Shown here one piece after another: positions 27,022 to 56,331 of a DNA stretch of 64,000 nt. Source of the stretch: an uncultured Gammaproteobacteria bacterium. Its GTDB lineage: Bacteria > Patescibacteriota > Microgenomatia > Levybacterales > UBA12049. Under the pieces are notes generated by a model. The model did not search any database and was not told the origin of the DNA. It saw nothing but the letters and a program-made list of their open reading frames with translations. The position numbers and the translations under genes are program-made. Position 1 is the first letter of the stretch. Every line of letters begins with the position of its first letter. Location: NCBI GenBank assembly GCA_964512695.1, contig CAZEJU010000001.1:7803-71802 (forward strand). Reading direction: 5' to 3'.

Positions 27022-28503
27022 ATGTCCCGAATACACGAATTACCAAGTATCCATACACTCTCTTCTACTGATGCTCAAAGATATTGGGATAAGTTACATC
27101 CAATAAAAGTTGTATCTCATGAGAGACCCCTGCAATACGGACATCCAGTTGAAATTCCTCCTAAACTCGCAGGAACTATTGGCAGATCAGCAAATCTCAT
27201 GGAAGAAATTGCGATAGATAGCATTATGCAACAAGGGGCCACTACATGGCTTGGAAATAATGCGGCTTCTTTCGCAGGTGATAGTCTTAACATACAAGAA
27301 ATCAACCACCAGCTCGAAGGTAGGCTTCTTCAAGGCTATCGATTACCTATTAGTTACGATGGAATGATAACAGTCTTTCGTGGAAGACCACATTATACAG
27401 TAGTGGAAGCACAATCTCTAGTTGCTCATGGCCCATGGATTCGGTCTATGCTTCAAGCAGCAGATAAAGATCCAGATGATCCATCATCATGGCAAGGGAA
27501 AGAAAATCCTACCCTCGTAGTTCAACAAATGAAAGACAATTTCGCGAAGGGTGAAGTTATAACAGTATTAGATACCACTCCACTTTCAGGTCCATTTATT
27601 CATGAACAAGTGGGTCTAGCGAAAGCATTAGGAACATCGGGAAGCGTGCCTATTTCTGCGCTTGATATCCAATTTAATCCTGAAATAGGTTATTTTCATT
27701 ACGGTTATGCAGTTGATACTAGAGGCTACCCTATACCAAATGGAAACGGCTTTTTAAGAACATCCGACCGAATACCAATCCGGCATGTGTTAAGCCGTAT
27801 GACGCAACCTGATCTGGATCATTTATACAATCTGGTCCGCGGTAACCCCCAACAAAGTGAACTTATACTCAAGTTCTTACGAGATGAAAAGATTAATTGG
27901 ATCTGGCATCCAGCATGGCAGTCCCTCATCGATAAATCGAGATTACCATATATCTGTAAAAAACTGGAAGAAAGACAAGAAAACGTAACACGCAATCAAT
28001 TTGTTCCGATTTTCGTAGCCGGTGAAACTCCACCCCTAGGAACGTATGTGCGTAAACCCGTAAGCAGCGTCCAAGGTGAAGGAGTAACAATTGTGCAAGT
28101 TAATGGCGTACCTCAACAAGTCGAAGAAGGCACAGTATACCAAAAGTATTTTTACCCGTATCCGTTTTCCATTCCCTTAGACGCAGAAATAGCACGGCAA
28201 TTTCCTGTAACACCCCATGCTCCCAGAAATGTCGCGTCTGGCTTCCAGGAACATTTCGGTTGGGGACAAACCACAACGCCTGCTAGTCTAGAATTATGTT
28301 ATATGGTGCCACCTTGGTGTAAAGGAGAACTTACGGGATATTTTATAGGGAGAGTAGCACCCAGGTATACAGGACCAGATTCAAGAAACATAACCCAAAC
28401 AAACCTCTCAAAAGCGCAAGCTGCGATGTACGAATATATCCGAGATCAGGATCATTGGAAAACACCCTTCGGCTTTTCCCCTGTAACTCTTCAAAAGACT
28501 TAA
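27022..28503 (+). CDS. hypothetical 493-aa protein
   Basis: Long ORF preceded by a TTGACA promoter and a Ser-rich 18-codon uORF at 26929-26985. Confidence 0.4.
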   Translation: MSRIHELPSIHTLSSTDAQRYWDKLHPIKVVSHERPLQYGHPVEIPPKLAGTIGRSANLMEEIAIDSIMQQGATTWLGNNAASFAGDSLNIQEINHQLEGRLLQGYRLPISYDGMITVFRGRPHYTVVEAQSLVAHGPWIRSMLQAADKDPDDPSSWQGKENPTLVVQQMKDNFAKGEVITVLDTTPLSGPFIHEQVGLAKALGTSGSVPISALDIQFNPEIGYFHYGYAVDTRGYPIPNGNGFLRTSDRIPIRHVLSRMTQPDLDHLYNLVRGNPQQSELILKFLRDEKINWIWHPAWQSLIDKSRLPYICKKLEERQENVTRNQFVPIFVAGETPPLGTYVRKPVSSVQGEGVTIVQVNGVPQQVEEGTVYQKYFYPYPFSIPLDAEIARQFPVTPHAPRNVASGFQEHFGWGQTTTPASLELCYMVPPWCKGELTGYFIGRVAPRYTGPDSRNITQTNLSKAQAAMYEYIRDQDHWKTPFGFSPVTLQKT

Positions 28504-28528
28504 GCACACATACTCTTAAGTTTAAATA

Positions 28529-28557
28529 TTGACAATTTATAATTGATCTGGTAAGAT
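28529..28557 (+). promoter_or_regulatory. sigma70-like promoter TTGACA-N17-TAAGAT
   Basis: Read directly from the sequence. Confidence 0.55.
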
Positions 28558-28569
28558 TATAAGACAAAT

Positions 28570-28620
28570 ATGCAACATACGTTTAATTCTATTATTGTCG
28601 TCCTTCTCGTTACCCATTAA
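28570..28620 (+). promoter_or_regulatory. branched-chain-amino-acid-rich leader peptide ORF (MQHTFNSIIVVLLVTH)
   Basis: ATG CAA CAT ACG TTT AAT TCT ATT ATT GTC GTC CTT CTC GTT ACC CAT TAA. Seven consecutive Ile/Val/Leu codons; near-leaderless. Confidence 0.55.
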
Positions 28621-28650
28621 TTGGGCGGAGGACTCGTGTTAAAAAACGTA

Positions 28651-28675
28651 CCCGCTCAAAGAAGCGGGTTTTTTT
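28651..28675 (+). terminator. intrinsic terminator CCCGCTcaaagaAGCGGG + T7
   Basis: Followed by the tiny ORF ATG TTT TAA, then the AAGGAG SD and the main ATG at 28697. Confidence 0.6.
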
Positions 28676-28696
28676 ATGTTTTAAAAGGAGAAATAT

Positions 28697-30556
28697 ATGA
28701 GTTCACATAAAGAATATGCAGGGCAAGCTGCTCTCAAATCCTTAGCTGAAAGATATATTAGAAGGTATGGCTTAAAAGCTGATTTTAATCCCGAAGAGAC
28801 AGGTGGAGTAATTTTCGCTCAAGACGGTACACCACTAAGGCAAGTCCGTGCTCCTTTCTGGAGAGCAGAAAAAGGTGCAAAGGGAACAGGCAGAAAAGAT
28901 ATGCCTAGAGTTTACACTGCTACAAATCCTGACCCGGATAAACCTAACTCAGGATTAGAATTAGAATTCCAAGCTTTCCATGCCATGACAGGAGAAATGG
29001 AACCAGTCATGGATGCAGACCACCCAGTACATCAGGGGTTATTGGAACACAATCGAAAAGCAAAAAATGGACACACTGAAAATAATGGAAATGGACTTGG
29101 AAACGGAAATGGGGTTAATGGATATGTTTTTGTAGAAGACGGCGCTGACTGGGACCATGACTTCCCAACTGGACCTAAAGAAGTAGGATTTAGCCCAGAG
29201 CTAACACGTCATACTTTGGAGGAAAACTTTCCTCCGAATGTAGATTCCGGAACACGAAACAGAGAGACATTATATGGTATTAGCACAGTTGTACAATTAG
29301 CAGAAGCAAATAACACACTTATCTCTCCGTTCTCGACTATACCGCATCGAGATATTACACAAATTGATACGAATCAACATCCATATGTCCAACGCATAGC
29401 GTTCGAACACATGGGTCCCGAAAAAGTTAAACACTTTACAGGTACTTCACTGCAAATTCACGTAGAAATCAAGGATTTAGAGTCAGCTTTACACGCTGCA
29501 AACCGTTGGCAGCTAGTTACACCTATTATGTATGCGGGAACACTTTCAGCACCTTTTATCGCAGGAGAAATAACACCCGATTTACAAGAACGGTATGGTC
29601 AAGTTCCCGACGTGGTTGGCGATCCACTAAAAGAAAGCACATTTGATACTATGACACAAGGACCCCATGAATCATATAGATATTATGGTAGATTAATAGG
29701 ATCACCTTCTGGAGGTGCAATGAGACAGCCTCTACCTGAAACATCTGAAGAATTTTGGTCTGCGGCTAATAATCTTCTAAAATCAGGAGAAAGTCCTTCC
29801 GTGGGTAGAGTAGCAGGACACCATGCAGATTTTCGTATTCGCCCTGACTTGGGACCGTATGGCACAATCGAGTTAGCAGTATTAGATACTGCCGGTGCGC
29901 GCATTCCAAATATCGTAGCCATTCAAGAATTCTCCAGAGCTTTGGGTTGGAAGTTACAGAGACAAGCAGGTAATTGGGAACAAATTATGGAAGATCCTCG
30001 TTTTAAATCGATATTCGGGCAAGCACCTTCTAAGGAAACATTCGAGACTGTTCACTGGAATACTATAGAGGTAGCAAAACATGGAAATAAGGCAATGATT
30101 ACTGGTATGGACGGAGAACAGCATTCTATAGCAGAGTTATGGAGTAAGTTAGTGGAATATGTACAAGAACCTATTGAAGAAACCGGTTATACTGGTTTAC
30201 CGGAAGGTATTATCGAGGTATTAGATAAAGCTTATCAAGACCCATCAGAACTATTTGATGTTTATAAAGACGAAAAAGGAGTTACTTCTGTCAAAGGATT
30301 CTATGAAACCGGAGTCGGAACTATGAGCCAGTGGGCCAGACAACGTGCAGAAGAGTTGAAAGCAAGAGGCTTAGCAGAAAAAGAAGCCATTATCGATACT
30401 ACACTTAATGTAGGCAAAAGCTTTCATGAACATGTAAAGTCAATGACACCCAAAGATCTTAATACTTTATATGTAAGCGCTAACAAGGATGTGGATAAAT
30501 CACCCCAATACAGCGCTAATGGTCAGAATCCATCATACCAAACCACTGCGTCCTAA
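28697..30556 (+). CDS. GCS2/YbdK-like carboxylate-amine ligase family protein
   Basis: Motif order parallels E. coli YbdK: GLELEFQAF; SLQIHVEI (GQHVHVG-like); HHADFRIRPDLGPYGTIELAVLDT (HWDIRP..GTVEVRVMDT-like). Confidence 0.5.
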   Translation: MSSHKEYAGQAALKSLAERYIRRYGLKADFNPEETGGVIFAQDGTPLRQVRAPFWRAEKGAKGTGRKDMPRVYTATNPDPDKPNSGLELEFQAFHAMTGEMEPVMDADHPVHQGLLEHNRKAKNGHTENNGNGLGNGNGVNGYVFVEDGADWDHDFPTGPKEVGFSPELTRHTLEENFPPNVDSGTRNRETLYGISTVVQLAEANNTLISPFSTIPHRDITQIDTNQHPYVQRIAFEHMGPEKVKHFTGTSLQIHVEIKDLESALHAANRWQLVTPIMYAGTLSAPFIAGEITPDLQERYGQVPDVVGDPLKESTFDTMTQGPHESYRYYGRLIGSPSGGAMRQPLPETSEEFWSAANNLLKSGESPSVGRVAGHHADFRIRPDLGPYGTIELAVLDTAGARIPNIVAIQEFSRALGWKLQRQAGNWEQIMEDPRFKSIFGQAPSKETFETVHWNTIEVAKHGNKAMITGMDGEQHSIAELWSKLVEYVQEPIEETGYTGLPEGIIEVLDKAYQDPSELFDVYKDEKGVTSVKGFYETGVGTMSQWARQRAEELKARGLAEKEAIIDTTLNVGKSFHEHVKSMTPKDLNTLYVSANKDVDKSPQYSANGQNPSYQTTAS

Positions 30557-30590: not shown

Positions 30591-31676
30591 ATGATTCAAC
30601 AAGAAAGGCTTCTAAAAACATTCTTCGATCTTGTTTCAATCGATAGTCCTACAGGTGAAGAAGAACGCATTCGTAACGAACTCTCAAATCGTTTGAAAAA
30701 ACTTGGCGCTGAAACAGTGGAAAAAGATACCTATGGTAACCTCATAGCGAAATTCCATGGTGAAGGTGAACCGCTCATGATTAACTGCCATATGGACACT
30801 GTAGAGCCCGGTAGAGGCATAGTACCAATTATGAAAGGTGATAGAGTAGAAACCGACGGGAAGACAATTCTAGCGGGTGATGCAAAGGCAGGTTTAGCGA
30901 TTATCCTCGAAGCCTTAACTTCACTAAAAGAAGAAAATAAAAAACATGTACCTATCGAAATCGTCTTTACTGTAGAGGAGGAAACTGGACTTTATGGAGC
31001 TGTTAACCTCGACTATTCAAAAGTCTCCGCAAAAAAAGGATTTGTTTTTGATGGTTCAAAAGATCCTTGTACCTTAACCACATCAGCACCGGGATATTAT
31101 AGAGTCGATGTTACAATCATAGGAAGAGCGGCTCATGCGGGAGCCGAACCTGAAAAAGGTATTTCAGCTATTAAAATCGCTTCTGATATTATTACGAAGC
31201 TCGAGGTAGGCAGAATTGATGAAGAAACTACGGCAAACGTCGGTATTATAGAAGGCGGAAGCGCCCGGAATGCAGTACCAGAAAAAGCACATTTTAAGGC
31301 AGAAATTCGAAGTAGAAAGCTAGAAAAGCTTGAAAAACATGCAGGTCATTTCCAAGAAGTTTTTGAGGAAGCGATGAAGAAACATCCTGAAGCGAAAATA
31401 GAGATAGACATGCATTTAGAATTTAATCCATATATTTTCGATGAAAACCATCATGTTATTCAGCTTGCGAGTAAAGCGTTAAGCGAACTAGGACAAACAC
31501 CGAAACTTGCACCTTCGAATGGAGGATCCGATGTCAATATTTTTATTTCACACGATATAGAAACAGTGGCTGTAGGAATTGGCGATTATAATGCTCATAC
31601 AACCCGCGAATACGTCGTCATATCTGAAATAGTGTTAGGAGCTAGACTCTGCGAAAAACTCCTTGAGGCGAAGTAA
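30591..31676 (+). CDS. M20 family peptidase, peptidase T (PepT)-like
   Basis: LLKTFFDLVSIDSPTGEE; metal-binding HMDTV, GAVN/DGS region and E-rich catalytic region. Paralog of 39896. Confidence 0.7.
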   Translation: MIQQERLLKTFFDLVSIDSPTGEEERIRNELSNRLKKLGAETVEKDTYGNLIAKFHGEGEPLMINCHMDTVEPGRGIVPIMKGDRVETDGKTILAGDAKAGLAIILEALTSLKEENKKHVPIEIVFTVEEETGLYGAVNLDYSKVSAKKGFVFDGSKDPCTLTTSAPGYYRVDVTIIGRAAHAGAEPEKGISAIKIASDIITKLEVGRIDEETTANVGIIEGGSARNAVPEKAHFKAEIRSRKLEKLEKHAGHFQEVFEEAMKKHPEAKIEIDMHLEFNPYIFDENHHVIQLASKALSELGQTPKLAPSNGGSDVNIFISHDIETVAVGIGDYNAHTTREYVVISEIVLGARLCEKLLEAK

Positions 31677-31759: not shown

Positions 31760-31788
31760 TTGACACGTCATTAACCTCATGGTAGAAT
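31760..31788 (+). promoter_or_regulatory. sigma70 promoter TTGACA-N17-TAGAAT
   Basis: Read directly from the sequence. Confidence 0.6.
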
Positions 31789-31794
31789 TACTAT

Positions 31795-32108
31795 AACATA
31801 CGAATAACAGCGTTGATCCAGTATGGATGGGACTGGGGATTCTCCTTCATTAAAGTTACGCAAGGAGAGCGCTGGGTCTAATCAACCCCGGAGGCGAAAC
31901 CGTAAAAAGATCAGCAACATGTGTCATAGCTGCAGATAAGCACTGATTAAAAGCTGATTCTCGCTGATATAGAGCATGTCATGAATGAGAAGTCCTCCCA
32001 CGCCAAAGCTCCGGAGGATAAAACAAGGTGGCACCGTCCTTAAATAAACGTGGGACCCTTGTAAATAACTACAAAGTAATTTTGTGGTTGTTTACAAGGG
32101 TTTTTTTA
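31795..32108 (+). ncRNA. T-box riboswitch leader (antiterminator AAGG-UGGCACC-GUCC; terminator + T7)
   Basis: AAGGUGGCACCGUCC (~32026-32040) matches the T-box consensus AGGGUGGNACCGCG, including the 7-nt UGGNACC bulge. The 3' strand GGACCCUUG overlaps the 5' arm of the terminator 32057-32108. A candidate Stem I spans GUUGAUC...GAUCAGCAAC. Confidence 0.5.
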
Positions 32109-32120
32109 ATGGTAAAAACT

Positions 32121-33269
32121 ATGAAAGAAGGAGTTATTATACAAGTTGATCCGAGAATACCAGAGCCATATATAACATATATCCGGCAACGAAATGGGAA
32201 TGTCGGCAGAGATATAGCAGATCACCTTGGCCTACCCTATGTAGGAGACAGTCAGGGAGTACAACGTGCAGCTGATTATTATCCTGTACTTGCCAGAACT
32301 GTCACCAGAGAACATGCAAGAGTATTAGGTGCAGAAAATACAAGAGATTTCTATGGTCTTGCAGTTGAAGATTTAAATGTTGTGGGTAAATCTATACTCC
32401 ATCCTTCTATAAGCAGAAGACATCCTTTATTTCATAGAGAACAATTCGCACGAAAAGTCTTAGGTCAAACCCTTCCTGGTATAACCGGTTTCTCTAAAGA
32501 AGATTTATTAGCAGGGTATGAAAATGGTTACGCTGGATCACTGGATCATGCTTTAGATTACGAGCAGTATGGATTACGTGTTAAACTTCCAAATGAATCC
32601 GACGGCGTAGGACAATTTACTATACAAAGCAAGGATGATCTGGTTACTCTTCTAGAAGCTATTGAGGATAAAGATATCCACGAACAAGGACTGGTTCTGG
32701 AAGCTGATGTACAGAAACCTGAGACTATATCAGTCGGATTCGCGAGAATCGGTGATGAACAATTAAGTTTCATAGCCCAACAAAAAGATGCACGTGTGTT
32801 AGTAGATCATAAGGGCAAAACAATAGAGCAGAATAGATATGGTGGGGCATACGTCGTTGTGGCAAAAGGCCCTTTACAGTTACTATGCCAAGCCACGGAA
32901 GCAACTTCGCGTGAGAGATCTGCTGTAGAAAAAACACTGGCGTTTCATGAAGCCTATCAACGCATCTATGATCCTTTAGCTTCGAGATTAAGTTTCGATG
33001 TCATTTTCGGAGAAGGGAAAAACGGTCTCCCACTTGCAGGAATAAGTGACATTACTGGTAGGCTAGGTGGAACGTGTCCAGCACTCATGCAAGCTGCTGA
33101 AGAGTTCAGGAAAAACCCTTCTATTCAAATGGTAGGAACAGAAGTATCTCTTAATTATACTCCCCATGTACGATTTCCCTATGAAGATGAAGCTAAGGTG
33201 TATGTAGACCACCCAACACTCAGACTTACAGCAAGAGTAAACTCAAAACACAGAAGACTCGCAGCATAG
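32121..33269 (+). CDS. ATP-grasp-like protein
   Basis: GLRVKLPNESDGVGQFTIQSKDDL resembles the ATP-grasp central motif, but weakly. Start set at MKEGV downstream of the T-box terminator; the ORF-track start lies inside the leader. Confidence 0.35.
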   Translation: MKEGVIIQVDPRIPEPYITYIRQRNGNVGRDIADHLGLPYVGDSQGVQRAADYYPVLARTVTREHARVLGAENTRDFYGLAVEDLNVVGKSILHPSISRRHPLFHREQFARKVLGQTLPGITGFSKEDLLAGYENGYAGSLDHALDYEQYGLRVKLPNESDGVGQFTIQSKDDLVTLLEAIEDKDIHEQGLVLEADVQKPETISVGFARIGDEQLSFIAQQKDARVLVDHKGKTIEQNRYGGAYVVVAKGPLQLLCQATEATSRERSAVEKTLAFHEAYQRIYDPLASRLSFDVIFGEGKNGLPLAGISDITGRLGGTCPALMQAAEEFRKNPSIQMVGTEVSLNYTPHVRFPYEDEAKVYVDHPTLRLTARVNSKHRRLAA

Positions 33270-33278
33270 ACATGAATC

Positions 33279-33307
33279 TTGACATTACACATGGGCTATC
33301 CTATAAT
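33279..33307 (+). promoter_or_regulatory. consensus sigma70 promoter TTGACA-N17-TATAAT
   Basis: Read directly from the sequence. Confidence 0.65.
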
Positions 33308-33314
33308 CATTTAT

Positions 33315-33371
33315 ATGATACGACAAGCAGTAAATTTCTTTTTCTTTTTTACCCCACTCGCGGGGAGGTAA
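33315..33371 (+). promoter_or_regulatory. Phe-rich leader peptide ORF (MIRQAVNFFFFFTPLAGR; five consecutive Phe codons)
   Basis: ATG ATA CGA CAA GCA GTA AAT TTC TTT TTC TTT TTT ACC CCA CTC GCG GGG AGG TAA. Leaderless. Its 3' end runs through the hairpin CCCCACUCGCGGGG, whose GCGGGG can alternatively pair with the CCCCGC of the terminator. Confidence 0.6.
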
Positions 33372-33398
33372 TTTCGTGATCACACGAAATACTCTATA

Positions 33399-33422
33399 CC
33401 CCGCATAAGGCGGGGTTTTTTT
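33399..33422 (+). terminator. intrinsic terminator CCCCGCataagGCGGGG + T7
   Basis: Directly followed by the ATG of the tiny ORF MEEFYGND, then the main start at 33436. Confidence 0.6.
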
Positions 33423-33435
33423 ATGGAGGAATTCT

Positions 33436-35136
33436 ATGGCAATGACTGAACAAGACATACTAAAAGGTACAATGAACGGCCGAGTTGATTCAGGTTTAAA
33501 GGCAACTGATAACACAGCAGTACCTTTAGGTGAACAATCTCATGGCGGCATAGTCCGAAATACCGATGGACTATGGTGGCTACCTGCCTCACCACATCGC
33601 GGAAGGGGTTTCGAATGGCAAGACTCAAAGGATCCTAGATATAACGCAACACATTTAAGTGAAGTTGGCTACCACCCTGAACCTCTAGAACCACAGAGAA
33701 CCGTAGAAGTATTAGCTGAACATTTACAAGAAAAAGTTGAAGGAAGAATTCCGGAAACAGAAACCCATGGAGTTGAAGTTGAAGGGACTACCTATGATCG
33801 AGAAGGCAATCTCTTAGCAATTCCTGTCGATCAGAAAACAAATCCCGAATTATTAGCTTCTACACATGAAGAAGCCACAAAACTGGAAAACGGACAGTAC
33901 CCGAGAAAACCATTTGAAATAGCTCGAGCAGTAGCCAGTGCAACCCAGCGGGGTATCGCAATCGCTGAAAATCATAGCGGAATACTTGTCCTCACAGAAG
34001 TACCAGAAGGTGGAACATTTCATGATGCTGAAAACAGTACATTTCCATATATAGTACGTCAACAAGGAAGAATTCGAAGACACGCATTAGCACACCTTGA
34101 TGAGATACCTGAAGAAACATGGGCTCTCTATCGACGTTACGGCGTAGATATTCGAGAACTACTGGAATCTAATAGACCGCTCAATTGGCCTACTCATGGA
34201 TTGCATCATCATGCCGGTGCGCCACAAATAGAAGGATTAGTCGACCCGAGAGCCGCACTGGTTATGGGAAAAATGCGTCAAACACTTTTTGCAAAATTAC
34301 TGCAATACCCAGCATTTAATAGCAGTAGATTATATGAAAAAGAAACTGATCTCCGCGGAGTCCGATCTGTCGCAAAACACGCGCTTGCTACAACAGTTAA
34401 TAATGATTTACCTGATAGTGCTGAAGAGCTAATGTGGGATGTGCAACGGGCAATGAGAGAGGGAGAAATCGCTACGCCTTCACGATATCCTTATAAAGGC
34501 CAACACGATGTCGTTCGATTTAGGATGGATGGAAAACATAAAACTGTCGAGTCTATTAAAGATCCTATGACACCTGACCTATTAACAGCGCTTCATCTCG
34601 TGTTCGGCAATCAACTCCTGGATACCATCGGCCAGCAAGCTCTCGTACAAGTAGGTGGAGATGAAAGCAAAGTTATGGGTTATTTACAATCTATACATCC
34701 TGAGCTTTTTGCCACATTGCCTTCATTAGGTCCTGAGTCATCACATAGTGCAGATATGCAGTTTAATAAAGCAGGGTATCTAGGAACATTCCGCGGGAAA
34801 ACTTATGCTGAGCTTATAAGAGATGCACGTGCTGTCGTGGAAGGGGTAGGCAAACATTATACAGCACTTGAGACACAAGCTAAAATTGTAAATCACGTAC
34901 TAGGATACCAAACAGATATTCCTCATCCACAGACTGATCTAGCAACATTTATGGGAATAAAAAATGGAGTTTACCAACCAAATAGTATGAGAGCAGGAAT
35001 TCTAACGGATTATAAAACGGGTATTCCTACAAATGAACTGTTAGTTGTCCAGGCTGAAGCAACGAAATTACAAGCTCAAGCTTTAGCACAAGTGAGAGAT
35101 GATAAAGATCTTCTCGAAGTGTATGGATTACAGTAA
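33436..35136 (+). CDS. GCS2/YbdK-like carboxylate-amine ligase family paralog
   Basis: THGLHHHAG and VVRFRMDGKHKTVESI align with the GxHVHVG and HWDIRP..GTVEVR motifs of the family. Paralog of 28697, 41323 and 56332. Confidence 0.4.
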   Translation: MAMTEQDILKGTMNGRVDSGLKATDNTAVPLGEQSHGGIVRNTDGLWWLPASPHRGRGFEWQDSKDPRYNATHLSEVGYHPEPLEPQRTVEVLAEHLQEKVEGRIPETETHGVEVEGTTYDREGNLLAIPVDQKTNPELLASTHEEATKLENGQYPRKPFEIARAVASATQRGIAIAENHSGILVLTEVPEGGTFHDAENSTFPYIVRQQGRIRRHALAHLDEIPEETWALYRRYGVDIRELLESNRPLNWPTHGLHHHAGAPQIEGLVDPRAALVMGKMRQTLFAKLLQYPAFNSSRLYEKETDLRGVRSVAKHALATTVNNDLPDSAEELMWDVQRAMREGEIATPSRYPYKGQHDVVRFRMDGKHKTVESIKDPMTPDLLTALHLVFGNQLLDTIGQQALVQVGGDESKVMGYLQSIHPELFATLPSLGPESSHSADMQFNKAGYLGTFRGKTYAELIRDARAVVEGVGKHYTALETQAKIVNHVLGYQTDIPHPQTDLATFMGIKNGVYQPNSMRAGILTDYKTGIPTNELLVVQAEATKLQAQALAQVRDDKDLLEVYGLQ

Positions 35137-35139
35137 GCT

Positions 35140-35982
35140 TTATTCTCCTGACCAGGACATGGCATTCATAGCTATTTGAGAATCCATATCCAAATTCTTC
35201 AAAGTAAGTGGCAGAAAAGATACATTACTTAATAAGACAGCTCGTTCTAAGGGGGTATTTTCCAGAATAGGAGCATACAGTCGTCCTTCAATACCATCTC
35301 GGACTTCCTTCACATTAACAGAATCAGTAACACCAACCACAGGTACTGTAATTGAGTGTTTTTCTATCTGTAAATATTTCGAGGGCCAGATAAGATCTGG
35401 ATTTTCACTATCTGAAACGAAAAACTGTCTACCATTCGCAGGAACTACTAAACCTGATACAGCAGGTCTGGTATCAAAACTCTGGCCTTCATCACCCCAT
35501 AACATCTCACGAATGTCCTGGTGTACGTAACCTCTTCCACCTGAAAGGAGCGCAGCGCCATTCGCGTTGGAATAGAGCAATCCGAATGCTATACCTATCT
35601 CATCTAATTCTATGGCAGCAGGGGATGCAGCACGCTCTGAAAGTGATAAAGAAGCAGTACGCATTTGTTGCATCTGACTTATAGCACCTCTATGCTTCTG
35701 CATAACCATTTCTCTAACAGATTCACGTTCTTTATTAAAAGCTGACCATGTAGCAGGGAGAACGTCTATATATGCAGTTATACCCAATTCTTCGCGAATT
35801 GTTTTCTCTAATGCAGCCACCCTATCCATAGCGATCAATCGCTCACGGTCAGCGTGGATACTAGCGCCAATATCCTTACCTGCCAGAGCTTTTAAATAAG
35901 CAGCATGATACTCAGCATATAACGTGCGTAGTTGTTGGGTGTAGATTTGCAGCAATCTCGAATTTTCTCTACGTTCTATCAT
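35140..35982 (-). CDS. hypothetical protein
   Basis: 280-aa ORF downstream of tRNA-Val(GAC) on the minus strand. Confidence 0.35.
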   Translation of the reverse strand: MIERRENSRLLQIYTQQLRTLYAEYHAAYLKALAGKDIGASIHADRERLIAMDRVAALEKTIREELGITAYIDVLPATWSAFNKERESVREMVMQKHRGAISQMQQMRTASLSLSERAASPAAIELDEIGIAFGLLYSNANGAALLSGGRGYVHQDIREMLWGDEGQSFDTRPAVSGLVVPANGRQFFVSDSENPDLIWPSKYLQIEKHSITVPVVGVTDSVNVKEVRDGIEGRLYAPILENTPLERAVLLSNVSFLPLTLKNLDMDSQIAMNAMSWSGE

Positions 35983-37247: not shown

Positions 37248-37274
37248 GGGGTTGTAGTTATCGTGGAATATGCA

Positions 37275-37296
37275 CCCCGCCAAGCGGGGTTTTTTT
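37275..37296 (+). terminator. intrinsic terminator CCCCGCcaaGCGGGG + T7 directly abutting the start codon
   Basis: 6-bp GC stem, 3-nt loop, 7 T, then ATG at 37297. Confidence 0.6.
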
Positions 37297-38289
37297 ATGA
37301 GAAACTTATTAGAATTAGGAATTTTCGAAACATACGGAAATGGTGGAGGAGCAATTACCAAAGATAGAGTATCTCCTCCTATTTATCCAGTAGATGCTAA
37401 TTTAGGTGAATGGAGGATACTAGCAACTGATCATGAAAGAGAATTCCCGGGCGAGCATCTCGAACGTGCTTTTGAAGTGATAAAGCAATGGCAGGAAGTA
37501 TTTCCTCGGGAAGATACCTGGATTAATCGTGCGTATGGTATTCCGTCACCGATTATTAAACTCGATGCAACAATTACTAATAATGAATTACAGGTGTATG
37601 AAGTAGAAGATAGACCAGCAGGAATGGGTTATAGCGAATTAATAAATCCTGACTTACGAACAAATTTTGCTGATATTGTATCTACTTGGCCAGATTTCCG
37701 AGTCGTCGTTTCTCCTCAAAGATCTGGAAATGACGATCATTTATGGGCAAAGCCAGCAGAAGCAGATTGGCATGGTCTAGTTCTCGTCCGGGCAGAACCG
37801 TCTGAAGAAGAATTCCATGCATTACAGCGAAGATCCATAAGTACTCTGCTTACAGAAGGAGACAAATCGTATGGTGAAAAAATGGGTTTATGGAAAAGAG
37901 TTCATACAGCAGATGAGATAGATTTTTCACAAGGTTTTGTCGTCAAGCCCACCCAAGGAAGCAAAGGGAATGGTGTGTATGTATCTTTACCGAAACAATA
38001 CATGAAAGAACATGGGATCGACCCAGGTAGAAATGGCGTAGCTACTGCAGGGAAAATACGAGGTGTAATCGATACTGCAGCAGCAAATGGAGGAGTCTTC
38101 GTACAACAATATCATCCTCCTATGGAAACAGGTATCCCGACCCATCCCTGGGCAGTAAACCGGTTATTCTTCGGGTATGATATGCAAAATGGAGAATGGA
38201 GATATATAGGGGGAACATGGAATGCTCGAAATAATTTGAAAATTCATGGAGCTAGTGATACATTAACTGGCCCGTTAAAAACGGTATAA
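37297..38289 (+). CDS. ATP-grasp-like protein
   Basis: FVVKPTQGSKGNGVYVS and ELQVYEVEDRPAGMG motifs, though in an unusual order. Start placed after the terminator T-run. Confidence 0.35.
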   Translation: MRNLLELGIFETYGNGGGAITKDRVSPPIYPVDANLGEWRILATDHEREFPGEHLERAFEVIKQWQEVFPREDTWINRAYGIPSPIIKLDATITNNELQVYEVEDRPAGMGYSELINPDLRTNFADIVSTWPDFRVVVSPQRSGNDDHLWAKPAEADWHGLVLVRAEPSEEEFHALQRRSISTLLTEGDKSYGEKMGLWKRVHTADEIDFSQGFVVKPTQGSKGNGVYVSLPKQYMKEHGIDPGRNGVATAGKIRGVIDTAAANGGVFVQQYHPPMETGIPTHPWAVNRLFFGYDMQNGEWRYIGGTWNARNNLKIHGASDTLTGPLKTV

Positions 38290-52710: not shown

Positions 52711-54291
52711 TTAGGTTGATTCAACAGCATCAAGTTGAGGAGTTATGATAACCGTGTGCATGGTATCGCTACCAACTTGATATGAATCAAGTTCTTTTAC
52801 TTCGAAATGCACTCCAGATCCATGCGTAAATCTATTTAAAAGTCCCCGGGAAATCAGGCGATATGAAGTATCTCCACGCATTTGAGAAAAAATCGGCAAT
52901 AATTTTCCTTTTTTAGCATACTCTTCAACATATTTTTCTATAAATGCTTGAATTAACTTTATGCCACCCATACCTGTGCTGCTATCAAATCTATCGGTAG
53001 CAAAATCCATTATATATATACAAGATTGATCTGCATATTCAGGGTTATCAGCTATTGATATATCACGCATTTTCCCTTCATACGCTAATAAATACCCTTT
53101 AAGCCTTCCCTCTGATGTTCTATATGCAAAACTCATATTAGGTCTACCTTGTCTTGCGTTATTAATATCTTTCGCAATAAGTGTATTTTCCATCCCGTGC
53201 AAACCTAATAATAATCCATCATTTTCTTTGTATATACGGCTTTCTAGAAAACCTACTTGCAAAGAATCTTCAAATGTAAGAGGCGTTATTTGTTGATCTA
53301 AAGCTGGAGGAGTTTTTTTATCTGTTTGGCTAACATGAACCGTTTTATTTCTTATTTGATGTTTTCTCTTACGTTTTTCTTGAAGACCCAATTCGTATAC
53401 TTCATCATCGATATTATCTGAATAGCTCATCGGTGCTTGGGGAGCGAATGTGTTAGGACGCTTTGGAAGTTGGGTAAGTGCATCAGAATATCCCATACCA
53501 ATCACGACTCTTCCCTTTTCTACTCCAAGTTGATCACCGTATTGATCAACATATTCTTTAAAAAAGTCACTATAGAGTAACTCTAATACTTCATCTTTTC
53601 CCTTAAAATTTGGTGTAATTTCAATATTATCGCAGGCAATTATCCCTTCTTGTTTATCAAGAACGGTTTCTGGAAGGACTTCGTCAAGTGGTGTCTTTTG
53701 CTGTAGTGCTCTCGTGACATTTGGTATTGGTATATTCATATTTTTATCCTTAGTTACGACACTTTGTGCAACTGTCCTTTTCTTTCCATTTTTTTGTACA
53801 ATTTGAATAAGAAGTTGACTACAATTTGGATTAAATGTATACACCGTGTTTTTCCCATCCCCGAACGGCATACAACACGCTGTATCATTGCCTGCTACTG
53901 TTGCTTCGGGATCAGACTTTACTGCTATTTCAACAATATATTTAGTAGTTTGTGCCTCGGATTTCGGTATTCCAAATTCTGGATTATATATAAGACTCTC
54001 AAGTCTGGCTGCAATGTCAGCAGGTAAATCAATCCCAGATTCAAGATAGTCATTAAGCGAAATGTTGGGTATACGGAAAATTGCGGCGATTTCTTTATAG
54101 AGTCTCTGAGGATTACGCGCTTCTCCTGCAATTCGACGAGAACGTGATCCTAATGCTTTTTGAGCAACTTCATTTAAAGCGATAGATTCCTTATAATCTT
54201 CAACTTCATATTCAATTCGCATTGGAGGAAATACTTGTAAAGTATCTATTGTTCCTTCCACTAATGCATCGCGTAAATCTTCCGATGTCAT
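52711..54291 (-). CDS. hypothetical protein with C-terminal GNAT-like acetyltransferase fold
   Basis: C-terminal IYIMDFATDRF..STGMGGIKLIQAF resembles GNAT motif A. This is weak. Confidence 0.3.
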   Translation of the reverse strand: MTSEDLRDALVEGTIDTLQVFPPMRIEYEVEDYKESIALNEVAQKALGSRSRRIAGEARNPQRLYKEIAAIFRIPNISLNDYLESGIDLPADIAARLESLIYNPEFGIPKSEAQTTKYIVEIAVKSDPEATVAGNDTACCMPFGDGKNTVYTFNPNCSQLLIQIVQKNGKKRTVAQSVVTKDKNMNIPIPNVTRALQQKTPLDEVLPETVLDKQEGIIACDNIEITPNFKGKDEVLELLYSDFFKEYVDQYGDQLGVEKGRVVIGMGYSDALTQLPKRPNTFAPQAPMSYSDNIDDEVYELGLQEKRKRKHQIRNKTVHVSQTDKKTPPALDQQITPLTFEDSLQVGFLESRIYKENDGLLLGLHGMENTLIAKDINNARQGRPNMSFAYRTSEGRLKGYLLAYEGKMRDISIADNPEYADQSCIYIMDFATDRFDSSTGMGGIKLIQAFIEKYVEEYAKKGKLLPIFSQMRGDTSYRLISRGLLNRFTHGSGVHFEVKELDSYQVGSDTMHTVIITPQLDAVEST

Positions 54292-54419
54292 ATCTAAATT
54301 AGGAAGGCGTGTATAATTAGAAGGTTTTTTTCTATCTTGAATCCAGTCAGGAGTATGGGAAGCTTGAGCATTTAGAACAAGATCGGGATTAAAGGCAAAA
54401 TTTAGTACTGCAGTTTGAT

Positions 54420-55760
54420 CTACTTTACTATTGGGATGAAAGCCGACAGTTGTAACCCATTGATATAATTTTGCTTTTTTTCATCTTTTTTTCCTTCTCT
54501 TCCTAACGTGTTTAATTTTATTAACAAATATTTCTTTTGCAGAAGTTCAGCAAGTTTCGCGAAACGTTTTAGATTATTCCAACTCTCAAAAACTTTTTTC
54601 GGATTTTGAAACTCTGATGCCAGTGCAGAAACTTCTGGTGTATCTTTAGCTTCCTCTAGTAATTGTATGCAAGTCTCCCAATTCGTTAGGATTGTTTGAG
54701 CAATAGGAATAAAAAAGTCATAAGAGGTATATTCAGCTACCTCATCATCATCGCTCAACTTATACCTTCCACGGTCAAGTGAAACTTGATGGAGAATATT
54801 TGCCCAGAATTCATCAGGTGTCAGACCACTGACTTCATATAGCTTTAAGACATCTGGAAATGCATGGATTGCATCATGGGTACTTATATCTTGTTCAAAT
54901 GTTGCTTCATGAGTTTTTGGATCAAGGTGATAGCGTCGTATATATTTAAACATTCTATCATAACCAAATATTTCTCCTGCTGCTCTGAAATTAGTAATGT
55001 CTAACTCCTTCCATTCATTGATCCATGATTCTAAGTTTTTTGATCCACTAGTTATTGCATCAAATGCTCTTTTAAAATCTTCTGAAGATCTTAAGTTAAG
55101 AATGTCAATTCCCGCTTTCTTTACAAACTCTGCATCTATAGGAGATATACCGACTTTATGTGCATAATCAATTTCACTCCTTGTTAAACCAGAAGGTTCA
55201 ATAATTTTATTTAACAAAGCGTAAGCATGATCAAACGGTAAGACATATTCACAAATTGCATAAAGATCTGAGAAGGAATTAACGTTATATGATGCAAAAA
55301 GAGATTGAAGCTGCGGTGGCATATCCTTTTTATATTCTTCTAATAAACCTTTTGAATCGATATCTTTGAACACCTGCATGATCTGACCATTTAGATCGGA
55401 CTCTCTTCCGTAGTTTGTTATTAAGAAATTGGAAAGTACGTTTAAAGGGGGAGGTGTCTGGGAGTGATCATAAATATATTTATAAAAATCAAACCTTTTA
55501 ACTTGTCTAGACCCAGTTCTATTATCATCAGTTAATAATTCATAGGTTTTAGCTGCCTCATCTGGTGTAAGAACTAGGCCATTATATTGAGTTTGTAATT
55601 CTTCTACTAACTTTGTATTATCTTCTCCTTCGACTGTGGAAAATTTTCTAAAAAGATCTTCGAATTTTGCTTTTCTTTCTATTTCAGCAGGATTAACTTC
55701 TACAACACTATTAGTATCTGATATCTGATATCTGATATCTGATATCGACAATATCTTCAT
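54420..55760 (-). CDS. hypothetical protein
   Basis: 446-aa ORF. Divergent from the 56332 promoter. Confidence 0.3.
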   Translation of the reverse strand: MKILSISDIRYQISDTNSVVEVNPAEIERKAKFEDLFRKFSTVEGEDNTKLVEELQTQYNGLVLTPDEAAKTYELLTDDNRTGSRQVKRFDFYKYIYDHSQTPPPLNVLSNFLITNYGRESDLNGQIMQVFKDIDSKGLLEEYKKDMPPQLQSLFASYNVNSFSDLYAICEYVLPFDHAYALLNKIIEPSGLTRSEIDYAHKVGISPIDAEFVKKAGIDILNLRSSEDFKRAFDAITSGSKNLESWINEWKELDITNFRAAGEIFGYDRMFKYIRRYHLDPKTHEATFEQDISTHDAIHAFPDVLKLYEVSGLTPDEFWANILHQVSLDRGRYKLSDDDEVAEYTSYDFFIPIAQTILTNWETCIQLLEEAKDTPEVSALASEFQNPKKVFESWNNLKRFAKLAELLQKKYLLIKLNTLGREGKKDEKKQNYINGLQLSAFIPIVK

Positions 55761-55845: not shown

Positions 55846-56331
55846 ACAATTTATAAAGGCTATGACGAAGTCAAAGTAGTTTTCGCAGAGTGACACCAGA
55901 GAGAAGACGTCGCTGCAAGATCTTCCGTATCTTCGAAAATGAATTACGCTTCTGAGCTGTATGCCGAATCCGTTAACCGATGGATAGGCAGAACCGGGTT
56001 CGCACCGTGATAGCGAAAGAATGTGTCGCAGAAGAAGTGGAGCATTCGAAAATAAGCGTTTATCGTATTACTTCGAATCCCTTCATAAGGGATTTTTTAT
56101 TGCTAAGATAAGCGAAACCGAGGTGGTACCACGGAGAAAAATTAAAAGGTAAAAGGTAAAAATTGTATAAGGAAAGATAGTAGTAATTTTACTTTGGACT
56201 TTTGACTTTACACTTTTAACTTTCTTGTTCCGTCCTTGAGAATCATTATTGTTCGAGTGAAGTGAGAGTTATTTTTTACACATAAACTTCTCATTTTGTT
56301 CGAAGAATAGTATTTCTGGGACGGTTTTTTT
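55846..56331 (+). ncRNA. T-box riboswitch-like leader (AGGUGGUACCACGG) with an ~85-nt palindromic insertion and GGGACGG+T7 abutting the start codon
   Basis: AGGUGGUACCACGG at 56121-56134 matches the T-box core AGGGUGGUACCGCGG. Downstream CCGUCCUUG (56229-37) can pair with ACGG/CGAGG, forming an antiterminator, and also with GGGACGG (56318-24), forming the terminator. Confidence 0.45.

Follow-up and report, generated by a model that had tools for sequence, protein, structure and literature searches.

According to current understanding, T-boxes that act on transcription generally need a long Stem I with an IDTM, a platform that binds the tRNA elbow and lets tRNA be captured quickly while transcription proceeds, and T-boxes with a short Stem I are slower, translational switches (PMC7583486). 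[quoted passage not shown] For tryptophan, TBDB records T-boxes that use a UGGC or a UGGU bulge against G73 (wobble usage) (PMC7778990), and the Firmicutes examples (trpS, the trp operon, trpX and rtpA) belong to Class I. Literature searches for T-boxes in CPR/Patescibacteria returned no report.

The window analysed here is a 64-kb stretch of an unclassified Patescibacteria contig. A leader of about 310 nt, lying between a promoter at 31760-31788 and a DUF3182/ATP-grasp gene, is very probably a transcription-attenuating T-box riboswitch with a compact decoding module, most likely for tRNA-Trp, as judged from sequence comparison. The features referred to throughout are as follows.

31760..31788, + strand: sigma-70-type promoter, TTGACA-17-TAGAAT, with 11 of 12 consensus matches and a TG-extended -10
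31810..31816, + strand: putative 5' half of a K-turn-like element below Stem I, with GC in the basal helix, GUU as the bulge and then GA, assigned by eye
31817..31837, + strand: Stem I, a short hairpin UCCAG [UAUGGAUGGGA] CUGGG without a distal platform, from covariation
31828..31830, + strand: UGG (Trp codon), the proposed Specifier, in the 3' part of the apical loop; purines G31831 and A31832 come next
31838..31872, + strand: GA (31838-39), a lineage-specific hairpin UUCUCCUU...AAGGAGAG (31840-31869) and GC (31871-72), the 3' half of the basal helix
31874..31888, + strand: P2, a small hairpin GGGU[CUAAUCA]ACCC that abuts Stem IIA in the Stem II position, from comparison by eye
31889..31905, + strand: Stem IIA-like hairpin CGG[AGGCGAAA]CCG, then UAA; CCGUAA at 31900-31905 is F-box-like
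31906..31916, + strand: linker; in a putative minimal IIB pseudoknot, its G31914-C31915 would pair with G31894-C31895 in the loop of IIA
31917..31979, + strand: P3, hairpin ACAUG-UGU-(47 nt)-GAG-CAUGU, whose counterpart in the neighbouring Tyr T-box is aligned to Stem III by the Rfam model
31983..31992, + strand: purine string GAAUGAGAAG, including a RAG motif
31993..32018, + strand: P4, hairpin UCCUCC...GGAGGA directly 5' of helix A1, additional to textbook T-boxes
32024..32061, + strand: antiterminator with A1 CAAGG/CCUUG, bulge UGGCACC (32029-32035) and A2 GUCC/GGAC, from folding and covariation
32055..32107, + strand: intrinsic terminator with stem 32055-32101 and T-run 32101-32107; the A2 and A1 3' strands serve again in its 5' arm
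32121..33269, + strand: regulated gene, DUF3182 (PF11379, E 6e-48; PMC4431377), ATP-grasp fold

The promoter, the leader length and the A1, bulge and A2 elements had all been proposed in a first-pass annotation of this DNA and were found at the positions given above; transcription would start near 31795, as placed from the promoter. At the aligned promoter position, the homologous locus L005 reads TTGACT-17-TAAAAT. The same annotation had named an ATP-grasp-like gene, and not an aminoacyl-tRNA synthetase, as the target, which was borne out by the PF11379 match and by structure comparison. An AlphaFold model of the 32121-33269 protein (pLDDT 92.5) was compared by Foldseek with the PDB, and the top matches were all ATP-grasp ligases (ArgX/LysX, Ddl, peptide ligases and PurK), with probability 1.00, TM values of 0.4-0.55 and identity of at most 15%. 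A sequence search of the PDB with DUF3182 gave no significant match. On the basis of the model, the product is a member of the ATP-grasp superfamily, at fold level only.

Homologous leaders were found before eight other DUF3182 genes from Patescibacteria metagenomes and MAGs (loci L002, L005 and L010-L015), the informative ones by exact-protein look-ups; together with the window they make nine leaders, which amount to only about six independent lineages. Three additional protein look-ups added no further leader and yielded only loci in which a TrpR-family gene is linked, and protein-profile scans of genomes and metagenomes gave eight distant DUF3182 loci without obvious leaders among the matches listed. 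The order of modules is constant in Woesebacteria (L002), the window contig and several metagenome contigs. When six of the other leaders, without the window, were made into a covariance model, it matched 31807-31927 with 44 bits (about E 1e-8) and also aligned the Stem I hairpin at 31817-31837. Between the window and L005 the 5' domain is identical at 78 of 81 positions (96%), and that pair alone gives no covariation signal; of the third positions in conserved codons with roughly four-fold degeneracy, only 50% agree. With its core invariant and its helices covarying in eight homologous leaders, the element is, by these sequence measures, far beyond chance.

Rfam RF00230 gave no match to the DUF3182 leader, neither at the gathering threshold (93 bits) nor at E<=10, and none to any homologous leader. 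As a positive control, RF00230 searches did detect neighbouring T-boxes, namely one in the window at 55853-56072 (58 bits) and two in L014 (112 and 74 bits). The 3' half of the leaders (IIA/F-box, P3 with its UGU/GAG loop, purine string and antiterminator) is common to these Rfam-recognised T-boxes of the lineage. Because RF00230 finds nothing at the DUF3182 leader, the case is built on comparison. A missing covariance-model match had been taken in the first-pass annotation as grounds to reject a T-box; this was judged too strict, because RF00230 models T-boxes with a long Stem I. The broader proposal of a T-box-type attenuator has held, on the strength of the core, the competing terminator and the covarying homologous leaders.

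At the 3' end of the leader, GGTGGCACC occurs at 32027-32035, with four matches in the window against 0.35 expected; two of the four lie in intergenic leaders, and GGUGGCACC is likewise placed in an intergenic leader. Matches to GGTGGNACC at 28305 (-), 51200 (-) and L003:2534 all lie inside coding sequence and were set aside as chance. When the antiterminator segment was folded alone, A1 (5 bp), the 7-nt bulge and A2 were obtained, and the same topology formed in all eight leaders folded, at -6 to -8 kcal/mol. The antiterminator is 97% paired in the alignment, with two A2 pairs changed on both sides. For the terminator, the earlier reading was right about the T-run and about the 5' arm common with the A1 3' strand, and wrong about the stem, which is not 10 bp long; it spans about 20-23 bp at -28 kcal/mol, and the hairpin with its U-run lies at least 13 nt upstream of the start codon. 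Terminators across eight leaders range from -26 to -35 kcal/mol, each three to five times more stable than the antiterminator, and a U-rich tail is present, weaker in L010. In the terminator alignment 99.3% of cells are paired, and in 9 of the 17 pairs both partners have changed (0/500 shuffles). Through their common A1/A2 3' strands, terminator and antiterminator are predicted to be mutually exclusive.

Across the nine leaders the bulge reads UGGC in six and UGGU in three, with UGGCACA as the variant in L002. Both forms fit pairing with G73, in line with the earlier prediction of a G73 tRNA, for which Trp had figured among the candidates. The A2 pair next to the bulge is G-C in seven of eight leaders, and not the conserved G.U wobble that serves as steric sensor of the aminoacyl group. 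This substitution appears to be a trait of the lineage, because the L014 T-box scored at 112 bits by Rfam also carries G-C there (GCGAG/CUCGC).

Upstream of the antiterminator, the middle modules could be followed across the leaders. P2 reads AGGU[CUAAAUA]ACCU or CGC[AAAAGUAU]GCG in homologues; the alignment register of P2 and of the basal helix is inconsistent among leaders, so these two are given without a formal pair count. By eye, no Stem II S-turn or AGUA/GAA loop-E motif was recognised in the P2 region of the leaders, where a non-canonical equivalent is possible. The Stem IIA-like hairpin has the form C(G/A)G...C(C/U)G with UAAA after it; all rows are paired (100%), and the middle pair is G-C in four rows and A-U in three. 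It occupies the position at which the Rfam-recognised T-boxes of the lineage carry CGGG..CCCG-UUA. The candidate IIB pseudoknot consists of two pairs only, with one G-C to A-U exchange. P3 is present in all eight leaders tested and in three Rfam-recognised T-boxes; its outer helix covaries and its internal loop UGU/(G/A)AG is conserved. Purine strings of the GAAU(A/G)AGA type are kept across leaders and are the counterpart of the RRRxG/RAG strings described for T-boxes (PMC7583486, PMC11297988). At the P4 position, homologues carry an unrelated GC-rich hairpin, usually followed by a U-run that is absent from the window leader. P4 intervenes between P3 and A1, and either hairpin is a candidate for the Stem III role.

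Stem I is a hairpin of 5-7 bp. Its inner five pairs are 100% paired and all five are changed on both sides, and the covariation value is 0.89, where shuffles give 0.28 (0/500). Each lineage has a stem sequence of its own, whereas the loop UGG and the purine after it are invariant in all aligned leaders and in L002. Other UGGs of the 5' domain do not keep their spacing, and the apical-loop UGG is the sole invariant one; from this conservation and the gene context it is most likely the specifier. Nominal loop lengths run from 6 nt in L012 to 11 nt in the window; where the outer positions can pair, as they can in L012 and L010 and in part in the window, a hexaloop G-R-W-U-G-G is left. Other folds of the G-rich 5' domain (GAUCCAG/CUGGGUC, GGACU/GGUCU and CUGGGG/CCCCGG) were considered and dropped, as distant leaders show the UCCAG/CUGGG hairpin.

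Below Stem I, the basal dinucleotides are GC/GC, GU/AC (L011 and L014) or CC/GG (L002). L005 reads GC-GAU-GA-[Stem I]-GA-GC, by eye a consensus K-turn, without any additional element separating Stem I from the basal helix. The hairpin at 31840-31869 is missing from this locus as a 31-nt indel exactly between GA and GC, and other leaders have unrelated hairpins at that position. By eye, L011, L013, L014 and L015 carry Watson-Crick GA/UC in place of GA/GA.

The gene context points to tryptophan. In L012, a tRNA-Trp(CCA) gene with G73 lies between the leader and DUF3182; the tRNA-Trp of the host genome was not found within the 64-kb window. Operon partners include TrpRS (TIGR00233, 293-329 bits) and TrpB (572 bits), and a DUF3182-AstE/AspA-like-TrpRS operon stands behind the homologous leader in four of eight loci (L002, L012, L013 and L015). 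DUF3182 homologues without the leader adjoin trpB or a TrpR-family gene, five of them directly 3' of a Trp_repressor-family gene. Because the same leader heads TrpRS operons in half of the loci, the regulon would be an ordinary Trp-charging one with DUF3182 first. The target had been called unusual, a description that these TrpRS operons qualify. Sequence and context together make a T-box sensing tRNA-Trp the most likely identity of the leader.

TrpR-family genes are also linked to DUF3182 at other loci, and the 5' domain is both unusually conserved (96%) and rich in UGG and GGG, as would be expected if a Trp-activated protein (TRAP-like or of the TrpR/YerC family) bound this G-rich, UGG-containing region and the bulge were an evolutionary leftover. 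However, TrpR-family gene and leader are alternatives to each other, and the 80-aa ORF that intervenes between leader and DUF3182 in L013 had no Pfam match. Selection acts on the UGG(C/U)ACC bulge and on helices A1 and A2 in all nine leaders, and only the apical-loop UGG is invariant while the spacing of the others varies. Protein-dependent attenuation is considered improbable.

A canonical T-box with a long Stem I had been drawn in the first-pass annotation, with GUUGAUC/GAUCAGCAAC as basal helix and the specifier, ACC (Thr) or that of another G73 amino acid, in a GAA-ACC-G loop. AGUA, GAA and ACC-G motifs do occur in the 5' domain and the basal helix can be drawn in the window alone, but it is broken by GAUG...GACCGCAAC in L005 and mismatched without compensation in L012, L013 and L015, and no helix adjoins AGUA and GAA. 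GAA-ACC-G turned out to belong to the Stem IIA-like hairpin with CCGUAA, which covaries and whose loop and 3' strand it makes up, and ACC changes to ACU in three leaders. A canonical Stem I with K-turn, AGUA/GAA S-turn, AG bulge and distal loop could not be fitted by hand to the window and L005 alone, and Rfam gave no match. Against Thr, all gene context favours Trp, and tRNA-Thr is normally without G73. This architecture is very improbable. Just as improbable is a decayed T-box remnant that is now a constitutive partial terminator: the lack of an Rfam match, of an IDTM and of a G.U pair in A2 would suit it, but every module is under strong purifying selection with compensatory changes across about six lineages, and the same module order is kept in Woesebacteria, the window contig and several metagenome contigs.

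Least probable of all is ribosome-mediated attenuation, in which a leader peptide, (U/A)UG-AUC-CAG-UAU-GGA-UGG-GAC-UGG..., stalls the ribosome at Trp codons: an ORF from 31812 reads ...G-W-D-W-G in the window and L005 and the same genome uses a leader-peptide attenuator with five Phe codons downstream, but the loop UGG is without an in-frame start codon in three of eight leaders, starts elsewhere are non-homologous TTGs without Shine-Dalgarno sequences and give unrelated peptides, the 31-nt indel shifts the frame while the nucleotides downstream stay identical, the UGGs are separated from the antiterminator by about 190 nt and several stable hairpins, and the antiterminator holds a specific T-box bulge that ribosome-based attenuation does not need.

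The Phe leader-peptide attenuator itself lies 1.2 kb downstream of the DUF3182 leader. Homology between the gene that follows it (33436-35136) and the gene after the third T-box of L014 was tested and rejected.

For a T-box sensing tRNA-Trp, we infer the following course of tRNA binding and regulation. The short Stem I (31817-31837), on its putative K-turn-like base, would present UGG 31828-31830 to the CCA anticodon of tRNA-Trp, with P2 and the Stem IIA/F-box-like element (31874-31916) standing in for the Stem II domain. A distal double-T-loop platform to grip the tRNA elbow would not be available; neither an IDTM platform nor a Stem II S-turn was identifiable in these leaders. Hairpins P3 and P4 and the flanking purines would connect the decoding part to the discriminator, where the 3' end GCCA of uncharged tRNA could pair with bulge UGGC (32029-32032). 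This pairing would stabilise the antiterminator, which at about -8 kcal/mol is weak, against a terminator that is strong at about -28 kcal/mol, so that RNA polymerase would read through into the DUF3182 gene when uncharged tRNA is bound. Charged tRNA would be unable to pair, and transcription would end at the U-run 32101-32107.

Set against the described classes, the leaders resemble Class III in their short Stem I without an IDTM, a small apical loop that carries the proposed Specifier and a purine after it, a putative K-turn-like base, a IIA hairpin whose C(C/U)GUAA is F-box-like and which leads into a linker, and a UGGN bulge in the discriminator. They differ in being most likely Trp-specific and from Patescibacteria, whereas Class III is Ile-specific and actinobacterial, and in ending in an intrinsic terminator with a U-run instead of a translational Shine-Dalgarno sequestrator. 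The hairpin at the Stem II position is 3-4 bp, without the recognisable S-turn/5-purine string that Class III requires, the apical loop, a penta- or hexanucleotide in Class III, is nominally 6-11 nt, and the extra hairpin P4 precedes A1. With Class I (RF00230, of the B. subtilis tyrS type) they have in common the competition of terminator and antiterminator, the T-box bulge and A1/A2; the order of IIA/F-box, P3, purine string and antiterminator equals that of the Tyr T-box in the window (55853-56260) and of the two in L014, and a GC hairpin with a U-run is found in most leaders and missing from that of the window. In contrast to Class I, there is no long Stem I, internal specifier loop with S-turn, AG bulge/distal loop platform or Stem II S-turn. 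The Trp T-boxes of Firmicutes likewise have a UGG specifier and a UGGC/UGGU bulge against G73 (PMC7778990), and TrpRS belongs to the regulon of the window's relatives; unlike those Class I leaders, the present ones have DUF3182 first, with an AstE/AspA-like hydrolase, in place of biosynthesis or transport genes.

As a conserved family in which a short Stem I goes together with an intrinsic terminator, the leaders would be a natural counter-example to the long-Stem-I rule (PMC7583486). It is a real if tentative possibility that they represent a distinct, undescribed T-box architecture native to Patescibacteria/CPR, terminating transcription and reading tRNA-Trp through no more than a short Stem I of the hexaloop type and a Stem II region of minimal size, without IDTM or recognisable S-turn, and marking DUF3182, the AstE/AspA-like hydrolase and M20/GCS2-type enzymes as parts of amino-acid salvage. 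None of the nine leaders is found by RF00230, which also scores other T-boxes of the lineage too low, and T-box regulons of Patescibacteria are therefore probably under-annotated.

Used as a label, T-box specificity would place both DUF3182 and the AstE/AspA-like partner in tryptophan supply or in the formation of Trp-tRNA. Patescibacteria are thought to lack most amino-acid biosynthesis, and in such biosynthesis-poor hosts the link between DUF3182 and tryptophan therefore offers a concrete biochemical hypothesis. The AstE/AspA-like hydrolase is sometimes fused to TrpRS.

Read from its sequence, the ~310-nt leader in front of the DUF3182 gene is a genuine T-box-type attenuator, in which a compact decoding module resembling that of Class III T-boxes is joined to a terminator. 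The leader follows a near-consensus promoter and ends in a long hairpin and a T-run.

31760-31788 (+), promoter TTGACA-17-TAGAAT with a TG-extended -10
32055-32101, long hairpin, followed by a T-run
32121-33269 (+), PF11379/DUF3182 gene (E 6e-48)

The sequence GGTGGCACC occupies 32027-32035. Four copies of the 9-mer GGTGGNACC were counted in the window, where 0.35 would be expected; two of these occurrences are in intergenic leaders, and the other two, within coding sequence, were set aside as chance matches. When 32024-32061 was folded alone, helix A1 (CAAGG/CCUUG), the 7-nt bulge UGGCACC, and helix A2 (GUCC/GGAC) were obtained at -8.1 kcal/mol, and the terminator, which is built partly from the 3' strands of A2 and A1, folded at -28.2 kcal/mol. 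The terminator stem is about 20-23 bp rather than the 10 bp annotated earlier. The A2 pair next to the bulge is G-C, not the canonical G.U, as it also is in a 112-bit T-box of the comparison locus L014. The first-pass annotation had the discriminator domain correct.

That annotation had counted the lack of a significant T-box covariance-model match as a refutation of its proposal. Rfam RF00230 matched nothing here at the gathering score, nor at E<=10 in a 551-nt slice, nor were the other homologous leaders detected. The same search does detect a T-box at 55853-56072 (58 bits, E 4e-12), and in L014 two neighboring T-boxes at 112 and 74 bits. Because the model recognizes the T-box at 55853-56072, the organism uses T-boxes and the search is sensitive enough; the miss therefore indicates that the DUF3182 leader differs from the model in its highest-scoring part, Stem I and Stem II.

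55853-56330 (+), second T-box, RF00230 58 bits (gathering score 93), with a canonical long Stem I, F-box CCGUUA, an A2 loop of apparently about 90 nt, and a probable Tyr specifier (GAAU-UAC-G)
56124-56130, its UGGUACC bulge
56332-57711, GCS2-like carboxylate-amine ligase gene under its control
57724-58920, TyrRS gene, next in order

The best named relatives of this TyrRS are exclusively from Patescibacteria, including Saccharimonadales and Microgenomates (62-66% identity). The 112-bit T-box of L014 likewise lies 5' of a GCS2 gene.

Eight further leaders homologous to the target were found on contigs encoding DUF3182 relatives: L005, whose DUF3182 protein is 80% identical to that of the window; L010, L011, L012, L013, L014, and L015; and L002, from a Woesebacteria MAG, of which L007 and L009 are apparent near-identical copies. 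When the window is compared with L005, identity is only 50% at the third positions of conserved, roughly four-fold-degenerate codons, yet the 5' domain of the leader matches at 78 of 81 positions, the sole exception being a 31-nt hairpin (31840-31870) absent from L005. In the middle hairpins identity is 58-77% and indels occur; the core CAAGGUGGCACCGUC is invariant. The order of elements in the window is as follows.

31817-31837, Stem I, a hairpin of 5-7 bp
31828-31830, UGG of the Stem I loop
31874-31888, P2, a hairpin of 3-4 bp, 3' of the base of Stem I
31889-31905, IIA-like hairpin with CCGUAA, followed by a linker
31917-31979, P3
31983-31992, conserved purine string GAAU(A/G)AGA
31993-32018, P4, a further hairpin, followed by antiterminator and terminator

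The stem sequence of Stem I is different in every lineage (UCCAG/CUGGG, GAUUCGG/CCGGGUC, GACUCGG/CCGAGCC, GAUUUGG/CCA(G/A)AUC, GAAGUC/GACUUC, GAGAAU/AUUCUC, GAUCCAG/CUGGGUC), and its apical loop ends in UGG plus a purine in every leader (consensus N-N-G-R-W-U-G-G-R-A). By eye, Stem I could be placed on a K-turn-like base (GC-GAU-GA-[stem]-GA-GC in L005, with zero sequence between stem and base) with basal dinucleotides GC/GC, GU/AC, or CC/GG; the extra hairpin of the window is inserted exactly between the GA and GC. The long Stem I annotated earlier (GUUGAUC...GAUCAGCAAC) is unconserved, being broken in L005 and carrying uncompensated mismatches in L012, L013, and L015, and the proposed Thr specifier, GAA-ACC-G, falls within the IIA-like hairpin, covering its loop and 3' strand, where ACC becomes ACU in three leaders. 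Between P3 and the antiterminator, most T-box leaders of the lineage carry a terminator-like GC hairpin and, 3' of it, a U-run, for example CUCGC-GAAA-GCGAG-UUUUUU (leaders of L002, L005, and L010-L015; window 56075-56103; L014 1680-1705 and 4880-4905); at this place the target has the hairpin at 31993-32018 but no U-run. The element may serve as a pause site or as an initial checkpoint, or it may pair with the A-rich segment that precedes A1.

Covariation in the aligned leaders, with the number of shuffles, out of 500, that reached the observed score; the leaders represent about six independent lineages, and the statistics are supportive rather than overwhelming
Stem I, inner five pairs (alignment A4): 100% of cells paired; 5 of 5 pairs changed on both sides; 0/500
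Antiterminator A1 and A2 (alignment A5): 97% paired; two pairs changed on both sides, both in A2; 3/500
Terminator (alignment A5): 99.3% paired; 9 of 17 changed on both sides; 0/500
IIA-like hairpin (alignment A6): 100% paired; middle pair G-C in four rows and A-U in three; 2/500, counted jointly with IIB

For Stem I, the covariation score was 0.89 against 0.28 in shuffles, and slid-register controls paired at most 52% of cells. The IIA-like hairpin reads C(G/A)G[AG(G/A)C(G/A)AAA]C(C/U)G, and a 2-bp IIB pairing with the linker is possible, with one G-C to A-U exchange. P3 (NNNNG-UGU-...-(G/A)AG-CNNNN) was present in 8 of 8 leaders tested, and its outer helix covaries (ACAUG/CAUGU, ACGUG/CACGU, GCGUG/CACGU, ACAUU/AAUGU, ACGAG/CUCGU). 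A covariance model of the decoding module, built from L010-L015 only, scored 44 bits both for window 31807-31927 (about E 1e-8) and for L005. Every T-box module is thus under selection, which makes both attenuation mediated by a protein and a decayed T-box remnant unlikely. Attenuation by translation of a Trp-codon leader peptide, which is readable in the window and L005, was rejected: the UGG lacks an in-frame start in three of eight leaders, starts in the others are not homologous and have no Shine-Dalgarno sequence, and the 31-nt indel shifts the frame while nucleotide conservation is not relaxed.

The T-boxes of this lineage that Rfam recognizes (the Tyr T-box of the window and two in L014) have the same 3' organization as the DUF3182 leaders: CGG(G)...C(C)CG followed by UUA or UGA (IIA and F-box), then P3 with the same UGU/GAG internal loop, which the Rfam model aligns to its Stem III in the Tyr T-box, the purine string, the GC hairpin with U-run, and the antiterminator. 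Given this shared organization, the DUF3182 leaders are T-boxes with a replaced or shrunken decoding module rather than look-alikes. In Class III T-boxes (PMC10482949), Stem I is short and lacks the IDTM, the distal platform that contacts the tRNA elbow; the Specifier occupies an apical loop of five or six nucleotides, and a K-turn and a IIA/B pseudoknot are present. Neither an AG bulge nor a distal loop platform was seen in the DUF3182 leaders. Whereas Class III members are Ile-specific, occur in Actinobacteria, and act by Shine-Dalgarno sequestration, the present leaders are read as Trp-specific, occur in Patescibacteria, and carry an intrinsic terminator; they also have the extra hairpin P4, and a Stem II S-turn is not recognizable. 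Transcriptional T-boxes generally need a long Stem I with IDTM, short ones marking translational T-boxes (PMC7583486), and these leaders are a natural experiment on whether a T-box can control transcription without an elbow platform. A full-text literature search, of incomplete coverage, returned no report of T-boxes in CPR/Patescibacteria. The DUF3182 leaders are a sign that T-box regulons of Patescibacteria are under-detected.

Four independent lines (specifier, bulge, tRNA gene, and gene context) make tRNA-Trp the most likely ligand; tRNA binding, specifier, and direction of regulation are all inferred. UGG is the invariant loop triplet of Stem I. Six leaders have a UGGC bulge and three a UGGU bulge, and both pair with G73, the discriminator that the first-pass annotation had correctly derived; this C/U usage is exactly that given by TBDB for Trp T-boxes (PMC7778990). 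A tRNA-Trp(CCA) gene with discriminator G73 lies at L012 3425-3499, between the terminator of the leader and DUF3182, so that this T-box would control transcription of the gene of its own ligand; the window contains no tRNA-Trp gene. In L002, L012, L013, and L015, the genes after DUF3182 encode an AstE/AspA-like hydrolase and a synthetase, the latter confirmed as TrpRS by NCBIfam in L002, L013, and L015 (TIGR00233, 293-329 bits, cutoff 177) and a W/Y-class synthetase fusion in L012. In L003 and L004, a PALP enzyme and a W/Y-class synthetase flank DUF3182; those of L003 were confirmed as TrpB (572 bits) and TrpRS. Five leaderless DUF3182 genes (L001, L006, and L016-L018) lie directly 3' of a small Trp_repressor-family (PF01371) gene, and for this reason T-box leader and TrpR-like regulator look like alternative controls of DUF3182.

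Fusions were also seen at L012 4588-6249 (AstE/AspA-like, YbaK-type tRNA_edit, and TrpRS-like) and L004 4093-5607 (tRNA_edit and TrpRS-like), and a tRNA_bind protein is encoded 3' of TrpRS in L013 and L015; these suggest a hydrolase physically coupled to Trp-tRNA formation.

The ATP-grasp-like first gene noted earlier as unusual was confirmed by its PF11379 match and by structure: the AlphaFold model (pLDDT 92.5) matched only ATP-grasp ligases in Foldseek (ArgX/LysX, Ddl, ATP-grasp peptide ligases, and PurK; probability 1.00, TM-scores 0.4-0.55, identity <=15%), in agreement with Burroughs et al. 2015 (PMC4431377). DUF3182 relatives make up a rare group of about 30 clusters among 5.8 billion proteins, and every named one is from Patescibacteria. 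The leader gives the family a functional label tying it to tryptophan.

Just 3' of the DUF3182 gene lies a classic leader-peptide attenuator.

33279-33424 (+), Phe leader-peptide attenuator (Rfam Phe_leader, 26 bits; 39 bits at the corresponding position of L011, 4645-4766)
33279-33307, its perfect TTGACA-17-TATAAT promoter
33315-33371, mini-ORF MIRQAVN-FFFFF-TPLAGR, with five consecutive Phe codons
33398-33416, terminator, then a U-run; its CCCCGC arm can pair with GCGGGG

The 566-aa ORF that follows (33436-35136) has no Pfam match and is not homologous to the gene after the third T-box of L014. Seven window ORFs of 280-619 aa (in 27022-30556, 33436-35982, 37270-38289, and 52711-55760) are without a Pfam match and eight tRNA genes are scattered across the window, which fits a poorly characterized Patescibacteria genome. 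In several related loci, Group I intron matches (RF00028, 52-72 bits) lie near tRNA-Met genes (L002 32-297 (-), L010 1170-1375 (-), and L012 2696-2879 (+)). Directly upstream of the window leader is a PepT-like M20 peptidase gene (30591-31676; TIGR01883, 297 bits), and M20 peptidase genes are again found upstream of DUF3182 in L011 (2048-3124) and, further away beyond a GCS2 gene, in L014 (379-1455); this recurring neighbor may be part of the same theme of amino-acid salvage.
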